Source: Candidatus Binataceae bacterium
GTDB taxonomy: Bacteria; Desulfobacterota; Binatia; Binatales; Binataceae
DNA: 64,000 bases
Assembly: GCA_030038355.1 (NCBI GenBank)
Contig: JASHPB010000098.1
Location: 586 to 64,585, forward strand
Direction: 5' to 3'
Of the stretch, positions 2,837 through 53,437 are shown piece after piece. The position numbers and the translations under genes were made by a program. The stretch's first letter is position 1, and every line of letters begins with the position of its first letter. Under the pieces are notes generated by a model. The model saw nothing but the letters and a program-made list of their open reading frames with translations, was not told the origin of the DNA and did not search any database.

Positions 2837-3694
2837 TCAGTGGGTGCTAGAAGACCGACTTTCTTGGATTGCGGGCGCTGGAACGCGCTCGCCGTTTCGC
2901 ACCACGAAGTATTGCCGCTCCGTATCGTCACAACGATCGTTGTGCTCCACCTTGCACGAGCCATGGCTGGCGTACTGCAGGATGTACGCCTTGCGGACGC
3001 CGTTCGTCAGATTGGGACCGGTTCTGTGGGGTGTCAATGAGGAGAACACGACCATGCCGCCCGCGCGCAACGGCGCCGGTATTGCTTCTGAACCGTCCTC
3101 CTCGCGGCAGGCCCAGCCGAGCTCGGTCAGATGATGCTTTAGGGTTCCGCGCAGATGGCCCCCCGGTATAATCCACGGACAGCCGTTCTCAACGGTGGCA
3201 TCGGTCAGGGCTACCCAGCATGTCAGATACGCCTGTGGCTCGACGAAGTTGTAACCGTTGTCCTGGTGCCAGGGGAACTGCTTCGGATATTCAGGTTTCT
3301 TATAGACGGCCTGATCGTTGTAGAGACGAACGTCAGGTCCGATCAGATCGTGACACAAGTCGGCGAAGATCGGCGCCGCTGATAGGTCACGAAGAAATTG
3401 CGAACGCTTCACCAAATGGGTTGTGAAACTGATCCCGTCTGCCTCTGCAATGAAGTGCCTGCGGTTGGGCTGCTCACGCAGATATTGCTCAACCTTGCTT
3501 TCTCTCGGATCGATCTCGGCGATCGCGCGCTCAACCGTCGAAGCGTCAAGCGCGTTCTCGACGACGAAGAATCCAAGCTGATTAAACGATTGCGCTTGCT
3601 CTTCCGTTAGTCGCCGAAACGGCCGTTTCGGGGCCGACCAGACGAATCCATGATTGAGGTCGTGCAACTCAAACGCTTGTTCCAATAAATCCAT
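2837..3694 (-). CDS. Phytanoyl-CoA dioxygenase (PhyH) family Fe(II)/2-oxoglutarate oxygenase
   Basis: WHQDNGY (HxD) motif plus distal His, about 285 aa, typical PhyH-fold length. ATG at 3694 is preferred over the TTG at 3715 (weak GGAG upstream). Confidence 0.8.
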   Translation of the reverse strand: MDLLEQAFELHDLNHGFVWSAPKRPFRRLTEEQAQSFNQLGFFVVENALDASTVERAIAEIDPRESKVEQYLREQPNRRHFIAEADGISFTTHLVKRSQFLRDLSAAPIFADLCHDLIGPDVRLYNDQAVYKKPEYPKQFPWHQDNGYNFVEPQAYLTCWVALTDATVENGCPWIIPGGHLRGTLKHHLTELGWACREEDGSEAIPAPLRAGGMVVFSSLTPHRTGPNLTNGVRKAYILQYASHGSCKVEHNDRCDDTERQYFVVRNGERVPAPAIQESRSSSTH

Positions 3695-4259
3695 CGCCAA
3701 TAGGTCTCCGATCAACTCGGCGGTCTTCGCACTGGCGATGATTCTATCGCACGAATTGCCCGCGACAATATGTCTGCGTAACAGCGGATTGTTCCGGCGA
3801 ACAATTGGTTCGTTGCGATGCTTCGGTAGCGATCGCCCGTACAGGGTCTGGTATAACCTCGTCCGGACTCACAAAACGTTGCGCGGGTCACCAGCGATGG
3901 ATTGGGGCATGTCGCTTATCCGTTTTCCTTTGAAAACAGATCGGAATGTGGACGAATGGGAAGTGGCGAGCACCCCGAAAACTCCGCCAAATTGAACGAC
4001 CGGATCTTGGTATTTATCTAGATTACATCGCCTCTCGGGTGCCAGTGATCGCGCGCGCGACTTCTGAAAGAGACTTGTAGCGTCGGAGGCGGTAAACAAC
4101 ATCACTTTCCCGCACCGTGATGCTGTGACTCGTGCCTCGCCGTTGGCGGATCAGAACGGTCCCGGCAGGGGCTCCTCGCTGTTATCCGAGCTTTAGACCG
4201 CCTCCGTACCCGCTTCGCAACGCGGTCCAGCATCCGACAAGTTGATGGCTTGAGAACGG

Positions 4260-4460
4260 CTAGCGCTTCTCCTGAAGTCGGTAGGCTATGGCCCTGATCA
4301 TGAAATTACGCCCCAAACCGTGGGAGAGATTGTTGCCGAAGGGCCCTCTCCATCTTTGCTGCAGGGCTTTCGCATCGAGTGTCAGAAGTCGCGCGACCTT
4401 TTGCGCCAACCGGCCTGTACCTTTGACAACCCTCAGCGGCTTCTCGGCTTCATCATGCAC
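4260..4460 (-). pseudogene. DUF2924-like fragment (mobile-element-associated domain), truncated
   Basis: 66 aa ORF ending ..QQRWRGPFGNNLSHGLGRNFMIRAIAYRLQEKR*. This resembles the DUF2924 signature (W...fG..pP......lLiraiAyrlQe) seen next to serine-recombinase elements. No full-length partner gene was found in the 3.7-4.9 kb gap. Confidence 0.3.
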
Positions 4461-39946: not shown

Positions 39947-40411
39947 TCAGCTTCCCACGAGCCATAGCCCTAGCACCAGCGCCACGCTGCCGAGAGCAAC
40001 GATCGCAAAATGCGCGCGCACCATGCGCCGGATCGTGCCCGGGATGCCGTCTTCGTTGCCTTGCGCGAGCATCGTCCGCGTCAGCGCGGCGGTGCGCCAG
40101 GCGGCACCGAGCGCGGCGCCCATGAAGATGAAGATCCCAATCTTGATGAAAAGCACGATCATGAAGCTCGCGCGCAGGTGATAGTGCCGCTGCTCGGCCG
40201 CGATCGCGATATTGAAGGCGCCCGTAATGAGCAGCATTGCCGCTGCCACGATCGCGAGCTGGTTGATGCGCATCACTCCCGTGCGAGCGAAGCTCCGCTG
40301 CTCTTGAGTGCCGTCCTCGAGCGCGAGCCCAGCGATCACGAAGCAGGCGCAGGCTGCAATCCAGATCGCCCCTGCACCGGCATGCAGCCAGAGAATCAGG
40401 TTCCACAGCAA
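39947..40411 (-). CDS. Integral membrane protein (4 predicted TM), function unknown
   Basis: 154 aa with four hydrophobic segments (ILWLHAGAGAIWIAACACFVIAGLAL, LAIVAAAMLLITGAFNIAIAA, FMIVLFIKIGIFIFMGAALGAAW, HFAIVALGSVALVLGLWLV). It ends 21 nt upstream of the MBL gene start. Confidence 0.55.
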   Translation of the reverse strand: MLWNLILWLHAGAGAIWIAACACFVIAGLALEDGTQEQRSFARTGVMRINQLAIVAAAMLLITGAFNIAIAAEQRHYHLRASFMIVLFIKIGIFIFMGAALGAAWRTAALTRTMLAQGNEDGIPGTIRRMVRAHFAIVALGSVALVLGLWLVGS

Positions 40412-40582
40412 CTCAGCGGATTCCTCTCGACTCAGTCTGAAGTGACCGCGCCATTTATACCCGCGTCGCGCGATGGCGCAAGCGATCCATTTGGGCTAAC
40501 AGAAATGCTGTCGATACGGATGGCCGGCCGAATTGTGCGGGTAGCGGGAAACGCTCGATGCTCACGATGGAGGTCTTTTCAG

Positions 40583-41977
40583 GTGCTTAGCCCATGGATT
40601 AGCGCAACCGAACTGCGCGAACTCGTTGTCAAGAAAGAAGTTAGTCCGCGCGAGGTCGCGGACTGCTTCATCGCTCGAATCGAAAAGCTGAACCCACGCC
40701 TTGGCGCTTTCATTACTATCACCGCCGAGCGCGCTCGCGCCGACGCCGATCGAATCGAAAAGATGCCCCCCGAGGCGGCGCGCCACGCGCCGCTCTTCGG
40801 CGTCGCCTACTCGCTCAAGGATCTCACCTGGACGGCGGGCATCCGCACCACGATGGGCTCGAAGAACTACGAGAGCTTCGTACCGCCGATCGACATGGAG
40901 TACGCCGTCAAGCTCCGCAACGCGGGAGGTATCCTGCTCGGCAAGACCGCGACGCCGGAGCTCGGCGGCCGCCCGACCACCGAAGGTGGGCTATGTCCGC
41001 CCTCGCGCAATCCCTGGAACCTGGAGCACACCGCCGGCGGATCGAGCGGCGGCGCTGCATCGGCTCTGGCAGCCGGCCTCGGGCCGTTAGCCGAGGGCAG
41101 CGACGGGGGAGGCTCGATACGCATTCCTGCGGCCTGCTGCGGCGTTGTCGGACTCAAGCCGTCGCGCGGTCGGATCAGCTTTGCGCCCGCGATGGGCGAG
41201 GCGTGGGCCGGATTCGCAACCAGCGGTCCGATGGGGCGCACCGTCAAAGACGTCGCACTGATGCTCGACGTGATGCACGGGCCGGCGGTCGGCGATCCTT
41301 ATTGGGCGCGCGAGCCGATCACGTCGTTCAAGGCCGCCGTCGAAATCCCGCCGCGCAAACTCCATCTCGGCATGATCTCGAAGTCGGCCATCGCGAAGGT
41401 CGATCCCGAGACGACGGCGGCGCTCGCGTCGGCGTGCCAGCTCTTGGAGGACATGGGCCATCGCGTCGAACCGCTCGAGGTCGATCCGGCGGCGATCCTG
41501 GTCGACGTCGTGATGAGGCTAATCGTCGCCGGAATCGCCTCGACGCCGATGGAAAATCCCGCGCTGATGGACCCGGTCGTCCGCCATCCATGGGAAGCGG
41601 GGCAAAAAGTCTCTTCCCGCGAGTACATCGGAATCGTGATGCAGATGCATAACCTCGCGCGCGAGGTCACGCAAAAGCTCGCGCCTTACGATGCGCTCAT
41701 CACGCCAACGCTCTCGCGCCCCGCGGTGAAGCTCGGTACGTTGCCCTCGTCGCCCGACAAATGGCTCTCGGAGCTACCCGAATGGCTGCCGTTTACGTTC
41801 CCATTCAACGCGACTGGGCAGCCCGCATTTTCGCTGCCGAACGGATTCACGAAGGCAGGTTTGCCGATCGGATTGCAGATCGTTGGCCGCCCTGCAGACG
41901 AGGTCACGATCATCGGGCTCGCCGCGCAGTTCGAGAATGCGCGGCCTTGGCACGATAAGCATCCGGCGCTCGATTGA
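40583..41977 (+). CDS. Amidase-signature family amidase (paralog 1)
   Basis: GTG 40583 is preceded by GGAGG at 9 nt. GGSSGG plus catalytic K/S-cisS/S context (..KDL.., GGSSGGAASALAAG, GSDGGGSIRIPAA). The length of 464 aa matches paralog 2. Confidence 0.85.
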   Translation: MLSPWISATELRELVVKKEVSPREVADCFIARIEKLNPRLGAFITITAERARADADRIEKMPPEAARHAPLFGVAYSLKDLTWTAGIRTTMGSKNYESFVPPIDMEYAVKLRNAGGILLGKTATPELGGRPTTEGGLCPPSRNPWNLEHTAGGSSGGAASALAAGLGPLAEGSDGGGSIRIPAACCGVVGLKPSRGRISFAPAMGEAWAGFATSGPMGRTVKDVALMLDVMHGPAVGDPYWAREPITSFKAAVEIPPRKLHLGMISKSAIAKVDPETTAALASACQLLEDMGHRVEPLEVDPAAILVDVVMRLIVAGIASTPMENPALMDPVVRHPWEAGQKVSSREYIGIVMQMHNLAREVTQKLAPYDALITPTLSRPAVKLGTLPSSPDKWLSELPEWLPFTFPFNATGQPAFSLPNGFTKAGLPIGLQIVGRPADEVTIIGLAAQFENARPWHDKHPALD

Positions 41978-42004
41978 CGATTTGAATGAGCTGCACGAGG
42001 AAGT

Positions 42005-43402
42005 ATGAAGATCGATCCGTACATAGAAGCCATTGAACTGCGCGAGCTGGTGGTGAAGCGCGAGCTTCGCCCGCGCGAAGTCGCCGAGTTTTTTCTTGCC
42101 CGAATCGAGAAGCTGAATCCTCGCCTCGGCGCATTCATGACCGTCACCGCCGATCGCGCGCTCGCCGATGCCGACGGTCTCGAACGCTTGAGCCGCGACG
42201 ATGCCGCGAAGCTTCCGCTCTTCGGCGTGCCCTACTCGCTCAAGGATTTGCTCTGGACCAAAGATATCCGCACCACGTTTGGCTCGAAGAACTTCGAGAA
42301 CTGGCATGCGCCCGCGGATGCTGAACTCACGGTCCGCCTCGCCAAGTCGGGAGGTATCCTCCTCGGCAAGACGACGACGCCTGAGTTTGGACTGCGCGCC
42401 ACGACAGAGGGCGGGCTCTGCCCACCTGCGCGAAATCCGTGGAATCCCGAACACACCGCCGGCGGATCGAGCGGTGGCTCTGCATCTGCGGTTGCATCCG
42501 GGATGCATCCTGTGGCGCAGGGCAGCGACGGCGGCGGCTCGATTCGCATCCCGGCGGCATGCTGCGGACTGGTGGGCCTCAAGCCGTCGCGGGGGCGCGT
42601 CACGATGGCGCCAGAGAAGGCCGAGAGCTGGGGCGGCCTTTCAACGCTCGGCCCGATCGGCCGCTCGGTGCGCGATGTGGCGCTGATGCTTGATGTCATG
42701 GCGGGTATGGTCCCCGGCGATCCGTACATGGCGCCACTTCCGCCGATGCCGTTCGCCGCGGCCGCCAGGAAGCGCCCGAAGAATCTTCGCCTCGCGATGA
42801 TCAATTCGACCCGACTTGGAAAAGTTGACCCAGAGGTAATCGCCGGATTGGAATCCGCGTGCGCGACGTTCCGCGAACTCGGCCATAGCGTCGAGCAGAT
42901 CGCGCTCGACCCGGGCGAGCAACTACACAAATATGTGCGCTTCATAATCGGATCGTCGGTTGGCGCACTCGAAATTCCAAATCCTGACCTGCTCGATCCG
43001 ATCGTTCGGCAGAGCTACGAATGGGGCCGCCAATTGAAGGCAACCGACTATCTCCACGCGCTCGCGAACGTTCACAACGCCGCGCGAGACATCGTGCAGG
43101 CTCTCATGCCCTACGACGCGCTGCTCGCGCCGACGACGACGCGGCCCGCAGTCAAAATCGGCACGCTGCCGTCGCGGCTTGAAACTGCGGCCGACGAAAC
43201 CTACGGCTGGATCGCGTTCACCTTCCCGTTCAATTCGACGGGGCAGCCGGCCTTCTCGATGCCCTGCGGATTCAGCAAGGCAGGCCTGCCACTCGCTTTT
43301 CAGATCGTGGGGCGGCCATACGATGAGTGCGGGACAATCTCGCTCGCGGCGCAGTTTGAAGAGGCACGCCCGTTCAAGGACAAGCATCCGCCGATCGAGT
43401 AG
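42005..43402 (+). CDS. Amidase-signature family amidase (paralog 2)
   Basis: 465 aa. Roughly 60% of its string is identical to paralog 1 across the whole length (same motifs, e.g. ELRELVVK..PREVA..IEKLNPRLGAF). Confidence 0.9.
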   Translation: MKIDPYIEAIELRELVVKRELRPREVAEFFLARIEKLNPRLGAFMTVTADRALADADGLERLSRDDAAKLPLFGVPYSLKDLLWTKDIRTTFGSKNFENWHAPADAELTVRLAKSGGILLGKTTTPEFGLRATTEGGLCPPARNPWNPEHTAGGSSGGSASAVASGMHPVAQGSDGGGSIRIPAACCGLVGLKPSRGRVTMAPEKAESWGGLSTLGPIGRSVRDVALMLDVMAGMVPGDPYMAPLPPMPFAAAARKRPKNLRLAMINSTRLGKVDPEVIAGLESACATFRELGHSVEQIALDPGEQLHKYVRFIIGSSVGALEIPNPDLLDPIVRQSYEWGRQLKATDYLHALANVHNAARDIVQALMPYDALLAPTTTRPAVKIGTLPSRLETAADETYGWIAFTFPFNSTGQPAFSMPCGFSKAGLPLAFQIVGRPYDECGTISLAAQFEEARPFKDKHPPIE

Positions 43403-46084: not shown

Positions 46085-46088
<4 letters not shown>

Positions 46089-46900
46089 GGGCGAAGCATT
46101 TCGATCGGATCTTGACCCAACTCTCCAGCGAATCCGAGGCCACCGTTTAGTTGATAGCCCACGAGCTTCTGGAGATTCTCCGGAAGTGTGCGCGCGAGCT
46201 CAGGCGGAACTGCCAGGTACTGGTTTTCCTCCTGCCGCAACCATCCGAGAATGTACGCGGCGCCTGCACCGAAGCGCGGAGCGTTGGAGCGATTGGCGCC
46301 TGCTCCGTGCAGTACGTGATCAGTCCAAAGCAGAAGCGAGCCGCGCTCCATCACCGCCGGGATAATCTCGTCCGCGCGCGCAGCTCGATCGTCCCACCAT
46401 AAGTTGCTTCCAGGCACGAGATGGGTGGCGCCGTTTTCGATTGTGAAACCGCTGATCGCCCACATCGTGGCTACCTCGAGCACCGGATGCGGCGAGGGCA
46501 AATTCCAGAGTTGATCCTCGCGATGGAGGGCCTGGGCCTTCGACCCGGGGTCCGGCACCAACGCCGCCGTCGTGCACAACTGGTAGCTCGCGCTGTTCGG
46601 CAGCAGCATCGCGTCGCACACGGCCATGATCACGGGGTGCGTGACCAAGGTGCGGTATGCGCGAGACTTGGCGATCACGCCAACGATGCGCCGGGTCTTG
46701 GCGGGCAAAAAGTCCTCGTCGCCATAGGGCGCGTTGTTTGGCGGCTCGTCTCTCTTGGCGGCAAGATATGGCGCGAGTTCCTTCTCGAGCAGATCGCAAA
46801 CCTTGGATTCGGCCAATGACTTGACAACTACGCATCCATCGCGGTGCAGCACGTCAACTACTTCAGCCGGTGAGGCGTTTACGGACAGAGTTTGAATCAT
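46085..46900 (-). CDS. PhyH-family Fe(II)/2OG dioxygenase (paralog B, sister of 28277..29092)
   Basis: ATG 46900 with RBS AAGGGAG. 271 aa, the same length as paralog A, and shares ILGWLRQEENQYLAVPPELARTLPENLQKLVGYQ. HREDQ (HxD). Confidence 0.8.
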
Positions 46901-46928
46901 GTGCACTACTCCCTTTTCCCAATTTCCT

Positions 46929-47777
46929 TCATCGAAGCTGCTTGAAGCAGGGAGCGCGAAACCGATCGCCGTCCTTGAGATGTCCAAGCTGATCCACGAA
47001 CAAGACCCCAGCCTGCGTGTAGCCGCTATCGCTATGACTCGGCAGCGAGCGAAAGTAAGAATCGTCGCCGAAGAAGCGCAGGACGAGGGTGTGGCGGTTC
47101 CTGAATGTCGAATCGACCGGAGCTCCGCCATGCAGCATGCCAGGATGAAGGACGACGATGTCTCCCGGTTTAGTCGCCCATGAAAGGACCTCGTACTTGT
47201 TCGGATTAATCCTTCGCTCCGCCTCTATATCTGGAAGCCGCGGTAGGGCGCTTCCGCCATGCAGAGGCGCGGTGGGATCCTCGGCATCGAGGAAGTTTGT
47301 GCCGTCGTAGAGAATTCCGCGATGGGAGCCCTTGATGACCTCAAGCGAATTTCGCTGGGGAACTGCCTCGAAACTGATCCAGGCGTTGGCCCAATGCGGT
47401 CCATCCCAGGGAAGATAGGAGGTGTCCTGATGCCACGGCGTGCGACCGCCTTTGCCGTTCTTTTTAAGGAAGACTTCTTCGGCGAAGTACCAGACGTTCT
47501 TAGAGCCCCAGAGATCGGCGAATAATTCGCCGAACGGGATAGAGGAAACCAATGCGTTGAGTTGTTCCAGGGCGCCGGGGTTCGCATTCTCGTTGTGCGT
47601 TTCCTTTTCCGTTCCGGCGAAGAGCTCGAAGGCCAGCGGACCGGGGTTCTCGACGCACCAATCATAAACCGAGCGGCACCTGGCGAGTTGCTCGGGGTTG
47701 AGAAATCCCTCGATCAGGACCGCGCCGTCATCCTCGAATGCTTTCCGCGCGAACACCTTGCGCTTGGATGCGTCCAT
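46929..47777 (-). CDS. PhyH-family Fe(II)/2OG dioxygenase (fourth paralog, distinct subtype)
   Basis: WHQDTSY (HxD), distal HGG. ATG 47777 with GGAGGG at 8 nt is preferred over the track start 47810. Confidence 0.8.
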   Translation of the reverse strand: MDASKRKVFARKAFEDDGAVLIEGFLNPEQLARCRSVYDWCVENPGPLAFELFAGTEKETHNENANPGALEQLNALVSSIPFGELFADLWGSKNVWYFAEEVFLKKNGKGGRTPWHQDTSYLPWDGPHWANAWISFEAVPQRNSLEVIKGSHRGILYDGTNFLDAEDPTAPLHGGSALPRLPDIEAERRINPNKYEVLSWATKPGDIVVLHPGMLHGGAPVDSTFRNRHTLVLRFFGDDSYFRSLPSHSDSGYTQAGVLFVDQLGHLKDGDRFRAPCFKQLR

Positions 47778-47857
47778 TGTTGAGCCCTCCAGTTCGTGCT
47801 TGAAGATCATCTAGCACGGCTGGCAATTTAACACAACAGTTGTTATGTGAATTGGAG

Positions 47858-48535
47858 ATGAGCGTGAAACAACTTCGGCGGCAGGCCTCTCCTTCGCGCG
47901 TCAAATCAGCGCCGACCTTTGAGGCTCGGCCGCACGACCGCGCGAAACGAGGACGGCCGATAGGAGATCGCGAGGCCAAAAGCGGCGAGTTGATCGAAGC
48001 CGCACGCTACGTGATTGCGCGCGATGGATACGCCGGTGCGTCGCTGCGCAAGGTTGCGGCGCGAGCCGGCTGCTCGACGGGGGCAGTCACTTATTACTTC
48101 GCGAACAAAGAGGCGATGATCGCGAGAGTCACGCAAGCGCTGTGGGATGAATTCGATGAATGGCTGAGCGATCAGCCCGCGACGATCGATATCCGCGCGA
48201 TATTCGATCGCATGATCCGCTGGACTACCTCGAGGAAAGGCGACGCGTGGCTCGTCGCCTTTCAACTGCTGGTTCGCGCCGTTTCCGATCCTCCGCTCGC
48301 CGCGATGATTCAGAAGCGCTATGCGCAATTCCGCCGCCAACTTGCGCGTCTGTTGGAAAGCGGGCAGGCGCAAGGCGTGATACGCGCCGACATTGCGGCG
48401 GATCTGCTCGCCGATCAGATGAGCGCGATGGGCGATGGCTGGACCATGATGTTTCCGGTCGAGCCGGAGCGTTTCAGTCGCGGACGCATCGACGATTTGG
48501 TCAATGCGGCGATTGCGATGCTGACGCCGCGCTGA
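47858..48535 (+). CDS. TetR/AcrR family transcriptional regulator
   Basis: HTH region GASLRKVAARAGCSTGAVTYYFANKEAMI. It is divergent from the PhyH gene, and the 80-nt intergenic region carries the inverted repeat ACAACaGTTGT. Confidence 0.8.
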   Translation: MSVKQLRRQASPSRVKSAPTFEARPHDRAKRGRPIGDREAKSGELIEAARYVIARDGYAGASLRKVAARAGCSTGAVTYYFANKEAMIARVTQALWDEFDEWLSDQPATIDIRAIFDRMIRWTTSRKGDAWLVAFQLLVRAVSDPPLAAMIQKRYAQFRRQLARLLESGQAQGVIRADIAADLLADQMSAMGDGWTMMFPVEPERFSRGRIDDLVNAAIAMLTPR

Positions 48536-48570
48536 ATGGCAGCGGTATCGCCGCTTGCCTTCAGCTGATC

Positions 48571-48602
48571 GGCATATCCTATCCCATGGGATAGGATATG
48601 CC
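48571..48602. promoter_or_regulatory. Perfect 32-bp palindrome GGCATATCCTATCCCATGGGATAGGATATGCC overlapping the start codon of the CsoR-type repressor gene (autoregulatory operator candidate)
   Basis: Checked to be fully self-complementary. The ATG of the downstream gene lies inside the right arm. Coordinates are accurate to about 1 nt. Confidence 0.6.
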
Positions 48603-48867
48603 GATCAACGCTACGCATCTTGACGTCGTCAACCGGCTAAAGCGGGTCGACGGTCACCTTCGCTCTATCATCGAAATGATCGCGGCCCGGCGCGAATGCC
48701 TCGAGGTCGCGCAGCAACTCCATGCCATCGAAAAGGCGATCCACAGTGCCAAGCAGATCTACATCCACGATCACATCGACAATTGCCTCGAAGATATGAC
48801 CGGCTTGACCACCCGTGAGGCGCGAAACTCGCTAGCGGAGTTCAAAGAAATCACGAAGTACCTTTGA
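48598..48867 (+). CDS. csoR: CsoR/RcnR/FrmR (DUF156) family metal-sensing repressor, CsoR-like C-H-C ligand pattern
   Basis: 89 aa. Family string ..RLKRVDGHLRSIIEMIAARRECLEVAQQLHAIEKAIHSAKQIYIHDHIDNC... Ligand positions C34, H59, C63 reproduce the CsoR spacing (C-25-H-4-C). There is no His at position 3, so it is not RcnR-type. Confidence 0.85.
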   Translation: MPINATHLDVVNRLKRVDGHLRSIIEMIAARRECLEVAQQLHAIEKAIHSAKQIYIHDHIDNCLEDMTGLTTREARNSLAEFKEITKYL

Positions 48868-48934
48868 CCGTTTCGCTAGCGCGCGACTCGGCGGATGCGA
48901 TCGACCCGAGCTTCTCGGTTTTTGACGAAACTCG

Positions 48935-50087
48935 ATGAGGCAGACACCTCAATTGCTCCTTATCGCTGCCGTGACGGCGGATGGCGTCTTGCACACCGTC
49001 GTGCCCGACCATCGCGTGGCGATCGCCTTGATAGCGCGGCAGCACGGATGGTCAAAGCGCGAGACGGCGCTAGCCTCCTTCCGGGCCGGATTGCGACACG
49101 TCATCTCGACCATGCTCATAGCAGGGACGGTCCGGTTGGGAGGGGTCGCCTTTGCGTCCCGGTTCGGTCGCGTCGTCGACACCGCCACGAGTCTGGCGCT
49201 GATCGGCTTCGGCAGCTGGATCGCCGTCAGCGCACTTAGCGAGATGAATCTTTTCGGATCGAGCGGCAGCGTTCACCACAATCAGCACATCCAGTCAAAC
49301 AACGATGCAAACCACGATCCTATCCATGGTGCGGAGCAGCGACGTTTCGCCACCGACGAAGGCGAGCTCAAGTTGTCAATTTTCGAGCGCGGGTCTGCGC
49401 CCCGTTTTCACCTGTCCGGAGTGCCGATCGATATCGCAAGAGTCGAAACGAGGCACCTCGATGGTAGCACTCAGCTCTTCAGATTCGAGAGTCGTGGGAC
49501 CTATTGCGAATCGACCGAAGAGGTACCCGAACCTCCTGAGTTCGCGGTGTCACTAATGATCGATCACGGCGGCCACCTTCATAGTTTCGCGGGACAGTTT
49601 GTCGAGCATGGCCATGACGGCGGTCCCAATTACGACCGGCTATACGAGCCCTCGGCCAGCCAGGTCTTGCCGGGCGCACGTCCATGTTCATCGACATGGC
49701 TCATCGCCACCCCATGCTCACCGGCATGATCACGACGGAAGGAACTCTGCACGCGGTTTTGGCCGAGCTTGGCTCACCGGCTCCCCTCCACGAGCATCGC
49801 CACAAGGACGCCGGCGCGCACCGCACTGCTGCTGATCCTGGGCTCTTCCCCCATGGTCGAAGGCATACCAGCCTTCTTCGCCGCAGCTAATACGGATTCG
49901 CCCTCTTGATCGTGATGGCCGTGCTCTTCGGGATCAGCACGATCGCGACTTACGTTGTGCTGTGTGTCCTTCCGACCGAGGGCCTGCAGCCGTGCGCCTG
50001 GGCGCAATCGAACGCTACGGTGAAGTTCTGAGTGGTGGAATCATCGCCCTCGTCGGTTTGATCTTTTGGGTCTTCCCCATCCTCTGA
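48935..50087 (+). pseudogene. RcnA/NicO-like nickel/cobalt efflux permease, disrupted by at least 3 frameshifts and an in-frame TAA
   Basis: Frame A (48935-) gives TM1-3 with LHTVVPDHRVAIALIA (compare RcnA LHGLEPGHSK). His-rich loop pieces appear in two other frames (HVHVHRHGSSPPHAHRHDHDG, and HEHRHKDAGAHR). The later TM helices YGFALLIVMAVLFGISTIATYVVLCV and GGIIALVGLIFWVFPIL lie in yet other frames. A TAA at 49888-49890 is in frame with the YGFALL.. helix. Confidence 0.55.
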
Positions 50088-50162
50088 TATTGCCGCGCTG
50101 TTACCGATCGCATTAAATTTCGCCCGCTATCACTTTGACCGTCACTGATGGTCGCGCGATCG

Positions 50163-50906
50163 TCACGGCCTCACGCCGATCACGAGACCGCGGCCCATCA
50201 GGCCGCGATCGTCCCAGCTGGTGGCAAGGCCGAGGCTGGTGAACGATTCCAGGTATTGCTCGCGCGTGAAGAGCCCCAGCTCGTGGCGCTCGTTGAGAAA
50301 CGTAATTCCCTCGGGCGTGCCGATCATGAACTGCTCGTCGAACACCGAGACGTTGTTCTCGACGCAGTGAATTTCCATCCGCGAAATTTTGAGATTCGGC
50401 AAATCGACAAACCTGAATCCGATATTGCCTGGCGTGAAGGATCCGAGCAGCAGCCACGGCTCGACCATCAGCACGCCGCCGGAAGATACGTGACGCGCGA
50501 GGTTGGCAACCGCGAGCCTGAGGCGCGGCGCCGTTTTCACGTAGCCAATCGAGCTGAAGAGGCATGTGACGACGTCGAACTCGCGGCCGAGGTCGAATTC
50601 TGCCAGATCTGCGCGATGAAACAGGACGCCGGGGCACTTCATTTGCGCGATCGCGAGCTGCTCGGCGCTCGCGTCTAGCCCCTCGGCCTCGAACTGCCTG
50701 CTCAGATGCTGGAGATGGCTGCCCGTGCCGCACGCGACATCGAGCAGGCGCCTTCCGCGTGAACGCTTGTGTGCAGCGATGAGCGCAATCAGGCGGGCGC
50801 TCTCGGCGCGGTAATCCTTGAACGAATAGATAGCGTCGTAGAACGCGGCGCTCTTGCTGTACACGACGGCCGTCAGGTTATCAGGCCGCACGGTTCGCCG
50901 CATCAT
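50163..50906 (-). CDS. Class I SAM-dependent methyltransferase (TylM1/DesVI-like fold)
   Basis: 247 aa. SAM motif I LLDVACGTGSH. As far as I can recall, its overall string parallels the sugar N,N-dimethyltransferase TylM1 (..YD.....KDY..E...L..L.......SLLDVACGTG.HL.HL...F..EGL..S...L.IA....P...LH..D...F.LGR.F..VTC.FSSIG....). The substrate cannot be inferred. Confidence 0.8.
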   Translation of the reverse strand: MMRRTVRPDNLTAVVYSKSAAFYDAIYSFKDYRAESARLIALIAAHKRSRGRRLLDVACGTGSHLQHLSRQFEAEGLDASAEQLAIAQMKCPGVLFHRADLAEFDLGREFDVVTCLFSSIGYVKTAPRLRLAVANLARHVSSGGVLMVEPWLLLGSFTPGNIGFRFVDLPNLKISRMEIHCVENNVSVFDEQFMIGTPEGITFLNERHELGLFTREQYLESFTSLGLATSWDDRGLMGRGLVIGVRP

Positions 50907-51807
50907 CTAGTAGCGAGAACCAAGGATCGAACAAAGCGCGGGGCACCACCCTATGGTAACTTTGCTCCTCGTCTTTACCGATGGAAAATCTTCAACGTTC
51001 AGCCGCGGTAAAAAATGGCAAAGCGTCTGCGAGTGACTTGAAGACTCCCTGCTTTGTCGAGTAAGAGCACAGGCTCCATTTTCCTCAATAACCCTAAGAG
51101 CAGGTCGTTGCAGTCTACGGTTCGATCGCTGGATTGGGGGGCTTGGGATTGCAAGCCGCCACGGCCATACATGGTATCGCCATGACGGGTTGCGAAGTAC
51201 ATGCATTCGGTCAGCGGAGACAAAGGCCATAACTTTCGTAGCCGGGATACTCGGCACCCCGATAGATGCGCACCATCTAAGGGTCTCCAGTCCCACTCGA
51301 GTAAACACGTAGCAAAGGTTCCGCATCGGAGAAGTCGGTACACCTATTTGCGCTGGTACACGGGAGCGCTTCGGCTCAAGAACGACCTCAAAAGAGCTCG
51401 ACGGGCGGTCCGTCAACTTGATGATCGCGGGGTGGTTAGAGATCTATCCCGTGTGACCCTACTGCTATCTGTTGATCCCCGACGCCATTAGCGCTCAACG
51501 ATCCGGCTCACGTTCGAGAAGGTTATAGGCTCGCAGAACCCTCTCAGCTCCTCGACGACTTTGGCCTGGAGCTCATTTTGTCGGATTACTGTATGTTCGT
51601 GGGCTTTCGTCTCATCATGAAACCTTGGCCTAAACTGAAATGGCTTCCGCATCTTCTGATCCTGGGCTTGGGCCATTTCGAGCGCTCATTTGAGATCGGT
51701 CCTCCGCTGGATGGGGTTGTAGTGGTGTGCAAGCGTCGAGGAGTGCTTGCTCAAGTACTTGGGCGAGCTGCCGCGTGGCAGGCGACGAGTTATCCAGCGC
51801 AGCTTGG

Positions 51808-52215
51808 TCAGCCCGGCTGCTTGTCGAACCTCGGAAGATCGTCGCGGACGGGCGCCCACGGCGGTGCGCTCTTCATGAAGACCTGCATCATTGGCTTGAA
51901 TAGCGATGGATCGTCGAGGCTGCCGGCCTTGAGCGCGACGAAATCGCCCATCGCCGGCAGCACGGAGACGATCGGCGAGCCGCAGTTCGGGCAGAAGCCG
52001 CGGCTCACCTTGTTGCCGCTGTCTCCCGTCACTTCATAGTGCTTGAGCTGCCCCGTGATCTTGAGCGCGGCATTCGGCACCAGCATCACCGACGCCATCG
52101 CGGTTCCGGTCGAATGCTGGCAATCGGTGCAGTAGCAATTTCCCATGAAGATAGGATCGGCTGAGCATTCGTAGCGCACCGCTCCGCAAGCGCATCCGCC
52201 GGTGATTTTAGCCAT
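51808..52215 (-). CDS. GFA family protein (glutathione-dependent formaldehyde-activating enzyme / CENP-V-like Zn-Cys domain)
   Basis: ATG 52215 with RBS AGGAGGA at 7 nt. Cys pattern CACGAVRYEC...CYCTDC...CPNCG is typical of the GFA domain. Confidence 0.8.
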   Translation of the reverse strand: MAKITGGCACGAVRYECSADPIFMGNCYCTDCQHSTGTAMASVMLVPNAALKITGQLKHYEVTGDSGNKVSRGFCPNCGSPIVSVLPAMGDFVALKAGSLDDPSLFKPMMQVFMKSAPPWAPVRDDLPRFDKQPG

Positions 52216-52366
52216 GGCACTTCCTCCTGATGTCGCAGAGTCGCCTATCGCGCGCGCATGAATCAAGCGCGACTCGATCGTAGCTTTCCATCGTCCAAAA
52301 AGACGATGCCACTAACCCGCCGGATTGTGGCAGCATCGTTATGGACCATCAGGTGGAGGGTCGCTT

Positions 52367-53437
52367 ATGCCGCTGACACACATGATCGATGCAGCGCCGA
52401 TTGCGGATCGCTACGCGCGCGGATGGCATTGCCTGGGACTCGCGGCTGACTATCACGACGGCGAGCCGCATCGAATCGACGCCTTTGGCACGCGCCTCGT
52501 CGTGTTCGCGGGGGAGGATGGCGCTTTCCACGTCCTCGACGCGTTCTGCCCGCACATGGGCGCCGATTTGAGCTGCGGCCAGGTGCGCGGCGATACCATT
52601 TGCTGTCCCTTCCATAACTGGAGCTACGGACCGGACGGCAAGTGCGTCAACATCCCCTACAGCAAGCGCATCCCGCCCAAGGCGCGCGTGCGTTCGTGGC
52701 CGATCAGCGAGCAGAACAAGTTGCTATTCGTGTGGAACGATCCCGAGGGCAACGCGCCGACGCCGGACCTGGATATTCCGCGCATCGACGCGTGTTACTC
52801 AAATGAATGGACCGACTGGGTAATCGAAAAGTGGACGATCAACACCAACTGCCGCGAGTTGATCGACAACGTTGCCGACATGGCGCACTTTCCCGTCGTG
52901 CATAACGCGCCGGTCGATTACTTTGCCAACGTCTTCCAGCGTCACAAGGCGACGCAGATAATGATCGGCAGCGGCGGCGTGGGGACTCAGGGAAGCCTCA
53001 AGACCTGCGCAACTTACTTCGGCCCCGCGTATCAGATCACGCAAATGACGGGCGAAATGGGCGGGTTTCCGGTCGATTCGATCCTGCTGAACTGCCACGT
53101 GCCGGTTCATCTACGATGCTTCGAGCTGCGCTTCGGGATGGTCGTGCGCAAGATGAAGGGCGTGAGCGACGAACTATCGAAGCAGATGACCGAGGCGTAC
53201 ATCAAGGGCATCCAGCAGGGTTTCTACCAGGACGTAGCAATCTGGGATAACAAGATCAGGATCGACAATCCCCTTCTCTGCGAAGGCGATGGGCCGATCT
53301 ACCAGCTTCGCGAATGGTACCGGCAGTTCTACGTCGATGCGGACGACGTGCCCGAGGACACGCGCAAGCGGCAGGTGGTCGAGATTAACCTGGGGCTCAA
53401 GGATCCGCCCGCGCCGCATCACGTATTCGAGGATTAG
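52367..53437 (+). CDS. kshA: Rieske [2Fe-2S] non-heme iron oxygenase, 3-ketosteroid 9alpha-hydroxylase KshA-like
   Basis: ATG 52367 with RBS GGTGGAGGG. Rieske CPHMGADLSCG-x-CCPFHNW (CxH-x16-CxxH). Mononuclear Fe motif NVADMAHFPVVH (D-x2-H-x4-H). The N-terminal string RGWHCLGLAADYHDGEPHRIDAFGTRLVVFAGEDGAFHVLDAFCPHMG closely parallels KshA (RGWHCLGLAKDF..GKPH.V..FGT.LVVFAD..G...VLDAYCRHMG) as recalled. Confidence 0.85.
   Translation: MPLTHMIDAAPIADRYARGWHCLGLAADYHDGEPHRIDAFGTRLVVFAGEDGAFHVLDAFCPHMGADLSCGQVRGDTICCPFHNWSYGPDGKCVNIPYSKRIPPKARVRSWPISEQNKLLFVWNDPEGNAPTPDLDIPRIDACYSNEWTDWVIEKWTINTNCRELIDNVADMAHFPVVHNAPVDYFANVFQRHKATQIMIGSGGVGTQGSLKTCATYFGPAYQITQMTGEMGGFPVDSILLNCHVPVHLRCFELRFGMVVRKMKGVSDELSKQMTEAYIKGIQQGFYQDVAIWDNKIRIDNPLLCEGDGPIYQLREWYRQFYVDADDVPEDTRKRQVVEINLGLKDPPAPHHVFED

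Follow-up and report, generated by a model that had tools for sequence, protein, structure and literature searches.

What a small metal-sensor gene does when its start codon lies inside a perfect palindrome and the transporter gene behind it is broken over several reading frames is the question raised by a locus in a 64,000-nucleotide stretch of DNA (hereafter the window) from Candidatus Binataceae bacterium (contig JASHPB010000098.1, positions 586 to 64,585). A preliminary description of this DNA, made from its letters, had proposed a CsoR-type sensor in a non-canonical pairing with an RcnA/NicO-like permease that is either dead or lies in an error-rich region. Our analysis suggests that the locus is very probably a decaying two-gene, self-repressed Ni/Co efflux module of the ncrB-ncrC type, in which the regulator is intact and the permease is dead. 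The two genes, in coordinates of the window, are as follows.

48598..48867, plus strand: gene of an NcrB-like repressor of the CsoR/RcnR family, 89 amino acids, with H7, C34, H59 and C63 as candidate metal ligands.
48935..50087, plus strand: pseudogene of an NcrC-like (remotely RcnA/NicO-like) predicted Ni/Co efflux permease, with five frame changes.

The regulator matches Pfam PF02583 with 70.5 bits (cut-off 22.8; E 1.6e-19) over residues 9-85 of 89, and its C34, H59 and C63 align with C36/H61/C65 of CsoR, with C53/H78/C82 of InrS and with the same residues of NcrB, so that the length and ligand spacing given in the preliminary description are borne out by the family match, by counting and by alignment. 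Against NcrB, 48 of the 89 residues are identical (54%) over the full length and without gaps (E 4e-36), and tblastn searches with the regulator lead to about 270 Klebsiella and Enterobacter plasmids on which the gene is annotated as ncrB. In L003, the nearest locus whose permease is intact, the adjoining regulator of 89 residues is 87% identical. Among 22 homologues that adjoin related permeases, an H-x-[ST]-H motif near the N-terminus is invariant together with the C, H and C ligands, giving the H-C-H-C pattern of InrS and NcrB, unlike the H-C-H-H pattern of RcnR and DmeR (PMC7055735; PMC6044271). Both histidines of the N-terminal pair are present in all 22 relatives and in NcrB, whereas the window and two short contigs of separate metagenome assemblies (L089 with 97.6% identity and L090 with 99.1%, covering 48570 and 48589, respectively, to about 49150) have N4 and retain only H7; this H4N change is the sole deviation at the 24 columns that are invariant in the 22 relatives. 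The regulator coding sequence of the window is identical in L089 and differs by one synonymous change in L090. These comparisons identify the protein as a probable NcrB-type member of the CsoR/RcnR family, with putative DNA-binding activity and a putative specificity for nickel or cobalt.

A true Cu(I)-sensing CsoR would have the same x-C-H-C ligand set, and the intact module would in that case handle copper, not nickel or cobalt. The best NCBIfam match of the regulator is indeed the copper sensor RicR, though at 40.8 bits it falls far under the 175-bit cut-off; moreover, S. meliloti DmeR is induced by copper too (PMC6044271), and the beta insert of the permease family is weakly similar to the copper-binding CrdA (E 0.02, from a low-confidence model). 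We nevertheless regard a copper module as very unlikely. The closest characterized relative is the nickel sensor NcrB, whereas the best matches among solved structures (6ahx, M. tuberculosis CsoR and InrS, with FrmR weaker) reach only E 8e-12 to 8e-9. The second-shell Tyr that precedes the ligand Cys in CsoR is missing in the window (E33) and never occurs in the 22 relatives, while E81 and E84 near the C-terminus have the spacing of E95/E98 in InrS, and the relatives carry an N-terminal H-x-x-H as NcrB and InrS do. In addition, the partner gene is NcrC/RcnA-like; the regulator is surrounded by the NcrC-like pseudogene and by genes of a TetR-family protein and a methyltransferase, and no copper gene, neither ATPase nor chaperone, is found among the ten neighbouring open reading frames (ORFs) scanned.

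The permease can be placed through its relatives, which include 92 homologues; the intact ones are proteins of 377-400 residues read in one frame, with a CzcB_N domain. The two landmarks of the family that can still be read in the window are the following.

48989..49012, plus strand: metal motif L-H-T-V-V-P-D-H (H-X4-D-H) of the first transmembrane segment (TM1), which aligns to H-X4-G-H of NcrC and of RcnA from E. coli; behind it, DHWVP has become DHRVA in the window, with the loss of an invariant W and an invariant P.
49334..49615, plus strand: soluble beta-domain insert with His-rich stretches on either side, matching in relatives Pfam PF25971 'CzcB_N' (the name was taken from precomputed Pfam hits on those relatives).

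The intact relative P0002 aligns to NcrC with E 3e-19 over 234 columns, which span TM1-3 and the insert; LHTIVPDH is aligned to LHGLEPGH, and the alignment runs on through the beta domain of about 90 residues (ELSIFEEGQPPHWRL...PEPHSF versus KLSIFERGRAPHFRL...PEPHEF). Matches to annotated RcnA proteins are found by tblastn with E values of 5e-10 to 8e-12, an internal TM3/TM6 repeat is seen by the same means, and His-rich stretches are present. E. coli RcnA and NcrC pass the NicO and RcnA hidden Markov models (HMMs) easily (NcrC of plasmid pECL_A scores 503 bits to NF007454, with its Pfam NicO match split in two stretches), and only one distant relative of the window permease, P0078, passes NicO (29.1 versus 27.7 bits). 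The AlphaFold2 model of P0002 (mean predicted local distance difference test score, pLDDT, 62.8) has a beta-sandwich (residues 135-222, pLDDT 70-80) set between two helical blocks (residues 4-108 and 295-381); a Foldseek search of the PDB with this model gave no match below E 1e-3, and the insert is only weakly CrdA-like or Ig-like. Because NcrC bridges the two, the permease is best described as an NcrC-type member of the NicO superfamily, of a diverged sub-family that has H-X4-D-H in TM1 and would act as an exporter. The RcnA/NicO-like cargo named in the preliminary description can thus be kept as a homology that passes through NcrC, and must be restated as a remote relationship lying under the HMM thresholds. 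The family as a whole appears to be large, uncharacterized and highly diverged, and is missed by the current NicO and RcnA models.

The beta domain (motif ELSIFE..PP.FRL...PEPH.F; columns ~150-240 of the permease alignment) was also observed in the His-rich loops of three exporter scaffolds, namely NcrC, of the RcnA type (L088, positions 3283-4410), the diverged permease family itself and the CDF transporter P0092. The CDF protein that adjoins a regulator homologue on R. etli p42e shows no significant similarity to the permease or to the insert.

Our analysis of other genomes indicates that the pairing of the two genes is conserved. In a scan of genomes, one for each species, the permease had 324 relatives, mostly in metagenome-assembled genomes and isolates of Stellaceae, Acetobacteraceae, Acidocella, Acidiphilium, Binataceae and Paraburkholderia, from which 80 loci were retained; a close homologue of the regulator lies directly upstream of the permease in about 21 of these 80. 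In the JGI contig L003, the regulator lies ~100 nt upstream of the intact permease on the same strand, and in the window the two genes are likewise co-oriented and separated by 67 nt. The gene order on pECL_A is ncrA, ncrB, ncrC, ncrY. The pair therefore corresponds, as far as gene order and homology can tell, to the known ncrB-ncrC arrangement, which recurs and is not unusual, and the proposal of a non-canonical CsoR-RcnA pairing has to be withdrawn; the label 'InrS-like' that went with it holds as a description of the ligand pattern and not as a sign of unusual pairing.

We then come to the state of the permease gene. Its frame path was followed by tblastn with intact relatives and by aligning its DNA with that of three relatives, of which two proved intact; it consists of the coding pieces 48935-49660, 49674-49736, 49741-49806, 49808-49888, 49891-49989 and 49992-50087, which are joined by five frameshifts (FS1 to FS5).

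49655..49997, plus strand: zone of ~350 bp that holds all five frame-shifting indels, as seen in one assembly.
49655-49683, plus strand: FS1, net +1 or -2, in a variable stretch.
49731-49742, plus strand: FS2, +1 in CACGACGGAAGG.
49801-49810, plus strand: FS3, +1 (an extra G) in CACAAGGACG.
About 49889, plus strand: FS4, -1 in GCTAA-TAC, where one base of a Lys codon is lost.
About 49990, plus strand: FS5, -1 in CAGC-CGTG.

The broken frame path recorded in the preliminary description, over 'at least three' frames, is thus borne out in this assembly, with five frame switches, while the in-frame TAA noted there (49888-49890) is no nonsense substitution and is instead the out-of-frame outcome of the 1-nt deletion FS4 in the Lys codon. 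As read from this assembly, the window copy cannot encode a full-length permease, and no second copy of either permease or regulator is found in the window. Programmed frameshifting was considered and rejected, as there are five shifts and they go in both directions.

Substitutions point the same way as the indels. When the frames are corrected, 7 of the 94 columns that are invariant among 27 intact relatives are replaced (W27R, P29A, G54R, L60M, W67R, an R to H and an S to P), as compared with a leave-one-out median of 1 for the relatives; W27R and P29A adjoin the H-X4-D-H motif, and G54R and W67R lie in TM2. The two short contigs share some of these changes: W27R and P29A are common to the window, L089 and L090; L090 also has R50, R54 and R67; and L089 keeps the ancestral Q50, G54 and W67, with changes A18 (also in L090) and S42 of its own. 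The permease starts with ATG in the window, whereas L089 and L090 have CTG at this place. Of 75 permease codons compared between the window and L089, 9 differ nonsynonymously and 2 synonymously, a ratio close to neutral, whereas the operator and regulator differ at 0 of 298 nt (Fisher p = 5e-5 versus the permease).

An alternative is that the permease is intact in the organism, that the frameshifts are local errors of sequencing or assembly, and that the two genes form a functional operon for Ni/Co efflux. The crowding of five indels within ~350 bp would suit such an origin, and L089 and L090 stop before the indel zone, leaving one assembly as the source of the indels. Exact-protein look-ups with the 264-residue ORF and with the downstream methyltransferase (from two starts) found no other contig across the frameshift zone, and a 26-mer of the conserved SPMVEG region, scanned against JGI metagenomes, led only to homologues of ~74-79% identity, which are not the same strain. 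Against this alternative, nine of the ten neighbouring ORFs scanned match Pfam, several of them over the full model (e.g. PrkA 2-357/358, amidases 1-442/445), from which it follows that the assembly is not indel-prone in general. Moreover, none of the indels lies in a homopolymer of at least 3 bases, save possibly FS4 (AAA to AA), and thus four of the five fall outside homopolymers. Sequencing error also leaves the seven replaced invariant residues unexplained, of which W27R and P29A are seen in all three assemblies while two assemblies share G54R and W67R, as well as the CTG start in two strains and the near-neutral ratio of nonsynonymous to synonymous changes. A working permease is therefore highly improbable, and an error-rich region as the general explanation, as the preliminary description had allowed, is unlikely for the same reasons, the radical substitutions recurring in independent assemblies. 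Its other claim, a dead permease beside an intact regulator ORF, is upheld by the five frame changes and the seven replaced residues. The decay of the permease is real, the frameshifts themselves being known from one assembly.

Permease homologues in two JGI metagenome contigs (L093 and L094) are also split over more than one frame, and L094 has two such copies, fragmented and inverted. Either the gene may have decayed repeatedly, or errors may be present in these assemblies.

The region at the regulator start has the following elements.

48566..48607, no strand assigned: perfect 42-bp palindrome, formed by the operator core and an 8-bp lineage-specific extension on each side (TGATCGGC / GCCGATCA).
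48574..48599, no strand assigned: putative operator core ATATCCTATCC-CATG-GGATAGGATAT, the family motif.
48569..48597, plus strand: putative promoter TCGGCA-N17-TAGGAT, its -10 hexamer being the right operator arm, with a 0-nt gap to the ATG.

The preliminary description had reported a perfect 32-bp palindrome over the start codon (GGCATATCCTATCCCATGGGATAGGATATGCC, 48571-48602); it is there, and its perfect two-fold symmetry extends to 42 bp, with the arms TGATCGGCATATCCTATCCCA and TGGGATAGGATATGCCGATCA abutting and 100% complementary. By calculation, a chance match of a 21-bp arm to its partner is expected ~1e-8 times in 64 kb, and the runner-up perfect palindrome of the window is 16 bp long (arms 2929-2940 and 2933-2944). 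The 26-bp core, with at most 3 mismatches allowed, has one match in the 64-kb window and none in 100 dinucleotide-preserving shuffles, and no second copy of the operator was found in the window. The regulator ATG at 48598 falls within the right arm, and the palindrome includes the first ten coding bases; the ATG at its centre (48586) reads ATG-GGA-TAG only. As RNA, the palindrome folds with -37.3 kcal/mol (z = -7.8), and it is also present, from 48570 on, in the independent ENA contig L089. A role as terminator was rejected, as no T-tract follows the palindrome, and so was a mobile-element end, as the motif is conserved at homologous promoters.

It is this conservation that makes the palindrome the likely operator of the regulator, as had been supposed. 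The family motif, TATCCnnTCC-N(2-6)-GGAnnGGATA (also written TATCCnnTCC-N-GGAnAGGATA or ATCCNNTCC-N(2-6)-GGANNGGAT), precedes the regulator start in 19 of the 22 relatives, lying directly upstream of the homologues in L003, L004, L006, L025, L031, L041, L059, L069, L072, L075, L083, L084 and others; examples are AATATCCTATCCAGGGGGATAGGATATT (Ensifer, L006), TTATCCTATCCAGGAGGATAGGATAA (Dyella, L072), TTATCCTCTCCAGGAGGATAGGATAC (L003) and ATATCCCCTCCAGGGGGATAGG (L025). The centre is CCCATGGG in the window versus CCAGGGGG or CCAGGAGG in relatives, which is why the core is perfectly symmetrical here. The right-hand outer bases are codons 1-3 and one further base (ATG CCG ATC A), whose encoded M-P-I is common to L003, and the left-hand outer 8 bp (TGATCGGC) sit at the -35 position, where relatives have TTGNCA. 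The outer 8-bp arms occur in none of the relatives compared, the nearest (L003) included. By this comparison, only the outer 8 bp per side and the fusion to the ATG are specific to the lineage of the window.

The operator half-site GGATAGGAT was also observed as an exact copy at 49317-49325 on the minus strand, within the permease codons D-P-I-H-G; this 9-mer is not above chance in the window (9 matches versus 9.7 expected, with at most one mismatch).

The relatives also suggest how the operator and the promoter are combined. A scan of their geometry found TTGNNN-N17/18-TA[GC][GC][AG]T, then 5-7 nt and then ATG in 11 of the 22, with weaker -35 hexamers in three further relatives; the gap from TAGGAT to ATG is 0 nt in the window, 4 nt in L003 and 5-7 nt elsewhere. 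A fit to the stricter TTGNCA-N17-TAGGAT-N5-7-ATG was observed in L004, L006, L031, L041, L058, L069, L072, L078, L083 and L084. A generic sigma-70 scan of 48400-49000 gave no promoter at 9/12 matches. We infer that the operator fills the spacer between -35 and -10 and that its right arm serves as the -10 hexamer, in which case the transcript would have little or no leader, and the geometry suggests a leaderless mRNA for NcrB-type regulator genes at large. Such an arrangement has a precedent in InrS, which also binds a repeat overlapping the -10 box (PMC3320959). For NcrB-type sensors, it offers a consensus layout of operator and promoter: an operator that takes up the spacer and contains the -10, with the ATG 5-7 nt downstream. 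It also bears on NcrB itself. The ncrA promoter on pECL_A carries ATCCCCCTGGGGGGGAT, on which NcrB was footprinted and from which nickel releases it in a one-hybrid assay (PMC3046157); the same 2011 paper described the ncrB promoter as being without the GC-rich repeat and identified no site there (PMC3046157). Immediately 5' of the ncrB ATG on pECL_A (L088, positions 2960-3003) we find TTATCCCTTCCACCTGGAGAGGATAA, a candidate for the NcrB site of this promoter.

The comparison of the window with L003 also points to how the palindrome became perfect. The differences are concentrated in the left flank and the centre, where they create complementarity to the conserved codons ATG-CCG-ATC-A; conservation of the coding arm means that the upstream arm must have been copied from it. 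A cluster of changes that makes an imperfect inverted repeat perfect and longer is the signature of quasi-palindrome template switching (PMC7202029, PMC13100816). The most likely origin of the palindrome is therefore a template switch of this kind, in which the coding-side arm was copied onto the upstream arm, and the locus may serve as an example of quasi-palindrome correction at a site bound by a transcription factor.

The perfect 42-bp palindrome might instead have been selected, either as a tighter or two-copy operator of the repressor or as an mRNA hairpin that hides the start, and thereby keep an orphan regulator autoregulated. The lack of any change in the 298 nt of operator and regulator next to drifting DNA would agree with selection, as would the strength of the hairpin over the AUG and the position of the upstream TetR-family gene, which is on the same strand and stops 63 nt before the regulator ATG. 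Transcription entering from that gene would bury the AUG in the -37 kcal/mol hairpin. If the family promoter were in use in the window, transcription would begin downstream of the ATG. However, the strains compared are very close, with ~3 synonymous changes expected in the regulator, and the conservation weighs little; the outer arms, as noted, are in no relative, and the 64 kb hold no second operator copy. Selection for the palindrome is thus doubtful. Related to this is the idea that the regulator outlived its cargo and was kept as an orphan or re-wired sensor, unchanged among the three strains next to a neutrally drifting permease, with H4 lost to N and the operator rebuilt by the template switch, which we consider rather unlikely. 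If true, the locus would be a natural snapshot of the control element of an efflux operon being remodelled during operon decay; the H4N change could also alter the metal response or blunt it. On its own, the decaying module is of little weight, being one more decayed metal-resistance module.

Relatives and the published work on NcrB, InrS and RcnR suggest how the intact form of the decaying ncrB-ncrC-type module would work. A tetrameric NcrB-like repressor would bind the GC-centred inverted repeat at its own promoter, where the repeat would fill the spacer between -35 and -10 and supply the -10 hexamer TAGGAT, the mRNA starting at or just before the ATG. Binding of Ni(II) or Co(II) at the His/Cys site (H-C-H-C) would release the repressor from the promoter of the bicistronic operon, and the co-transcribed permease, with six helices, an RcnA-like core and a CzcB_N-type beta domain with His-rich stretches in its central loop, would export the metal. 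In the lineage of the window, the exporter has been lost to mutation, the repressor ORF survives, the same in three strains but without one conserved His, and the operator has turned into the perfect 42-bp palindrome that covers both the -35 position and the start codon.

Several points weigh against this reading and qualify its parts. The metal specificity is read from homologues, the W-X-Y-Z ligand patterns are unreliable predictors of the sensed metal (PMC4235346), and the copper response of S. meliloti DmeR is that of an RcnR-type regulator (PMC6044271). The window ORF and the intact relatives P0002, P0003, P0014 and P0045 all fail to reach the thresholds of Pfam NicO (PF03824) and NCBIfam RcnA (NF007454), and a comparison of the family profile with the single E. 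coli RcnA sequence gave an hhalign probability of 6.6%. The five indels lie beyond the ends of L089 and L090 and are seen in a single assembly; under uniform placement, a first 720 bp free of indels next to five of them within ~350 bp has p ~0.003, which also fits a local assembly problem. L003, with its intact permease, has a 4-nt gap and a poor -35, and a different promoter may serve its sub-clade; the model of the promoter and of a leaderless transcript is built on sequence geometry, and the template switch was deduced with one outgroup.

Some further features were observed around the two genes. The first of them is the following.

48906..48923, plus strand: weak hairpin CCGAG-CTT-CTCGG plus TTTTT, resembling a terminator, after the stop of the regulator and ahead of the permease pseudogene.

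This hairpin is not found in the homologous intergenic region of L003, and the T-run after it is one base shorter in contig L089. An Rfam scan of 47500-52500 gave nothing relevant. Downstream of the methyltransferase gene, a segment of ~1.4 kb (50907-52325) holds only short overlapping ORFs with TTG starts and may be non-coding or a degraded gene. Two tandem ORFs of PhyH-family dioxygenases (46085-47810) overlap by ~200 nt, probably as a start was called too far upstream, and two amidase genes lie in tandem at 40010-43402; the Pfam matches of the amidases and PhyH proteins are full-length or nearly so.

Among known systems, the closest is ncrB-ncrC of the ncrABCY cluster of Leptospirillum ferriphilum UBK03, an identical cluster being found on Enterobacter and Klebsiella plasmids such as pECL_A; Ni-responsive repression has been shown for L. 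ferriphilum NcrB (Zhu et al. 2011, PMC3046157). The two share an 89-residue PF02583 repressor (H..H-C-H-C) directly upstream of a co-oriented permease of ~380 residues, an RcnA-like six-helix permease core split by the same beta domain with His-rich stretches, and an ATCC...GGAT inverted repeat at the promoter. They differ in that the window locus has no ncrA (MFS) or ncrY gene, that the permease core of its family is 28% identical to NcrC, has H-X4-D-H in place of H-X4-G-H and fails the NicO/RcnA HMMs, and that the window itself has a regulator without His4, a perfectly symmetrical operator fused to the ATG and a permease pseudogene. RcnR-RcnA of E. coli is similar in that a repressor of the CsoR/RcnR family controls a Ni/Co exporter of the NicO superfamily with a His-rich central loop, and in that its operator has a G/C tract between AT-rich inverted repeats; however, RcnR has H-C-H-H, is divergent from rcnA and scores only 19 bits versus the window regulator, and RcnA is a protein of 274 residues without the beta insert. 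InrS-NrsD of Synechocystis PCC 6803, in which a Cys-containing CsoR-like protein senses Ni (PMC4235346), shares H-C-H-C, the paired C-terminal glutamates and an operator over the -10 box (PMC3320959), whereas NrsD is an MFS exporter and InrS, with a longer, His-rich N-terminus, has only modest similarity to the window regulator (E 8e-9). The DmeR-DmeF systems of rhizobia and Agrobacterium are likewise autoregulated Co/Ni operons of a regulator followed by an exporter, with an inverted repeat between -35 and -10 (PMC6044271), but DmeR has H-C-H-H, its box is ATAGGGTACCCCCCTATGCTAT and its cargo is a CDF transporter; rhizobial plasmids also carry relatives of the window regulator, which are C-H-C proteins adjoining MFS or CDF genes. 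Finally, CsoR-CopZA of M. tuberculosis, B. subtilis and Streptomyces has the same fold family, x-C-H-C and a G-tract pseudo-palindromic operator (PMC3902906), but CsoR senses Cu(I), has the second-shell Tyr and controls copper ATPase and chaperone genes.

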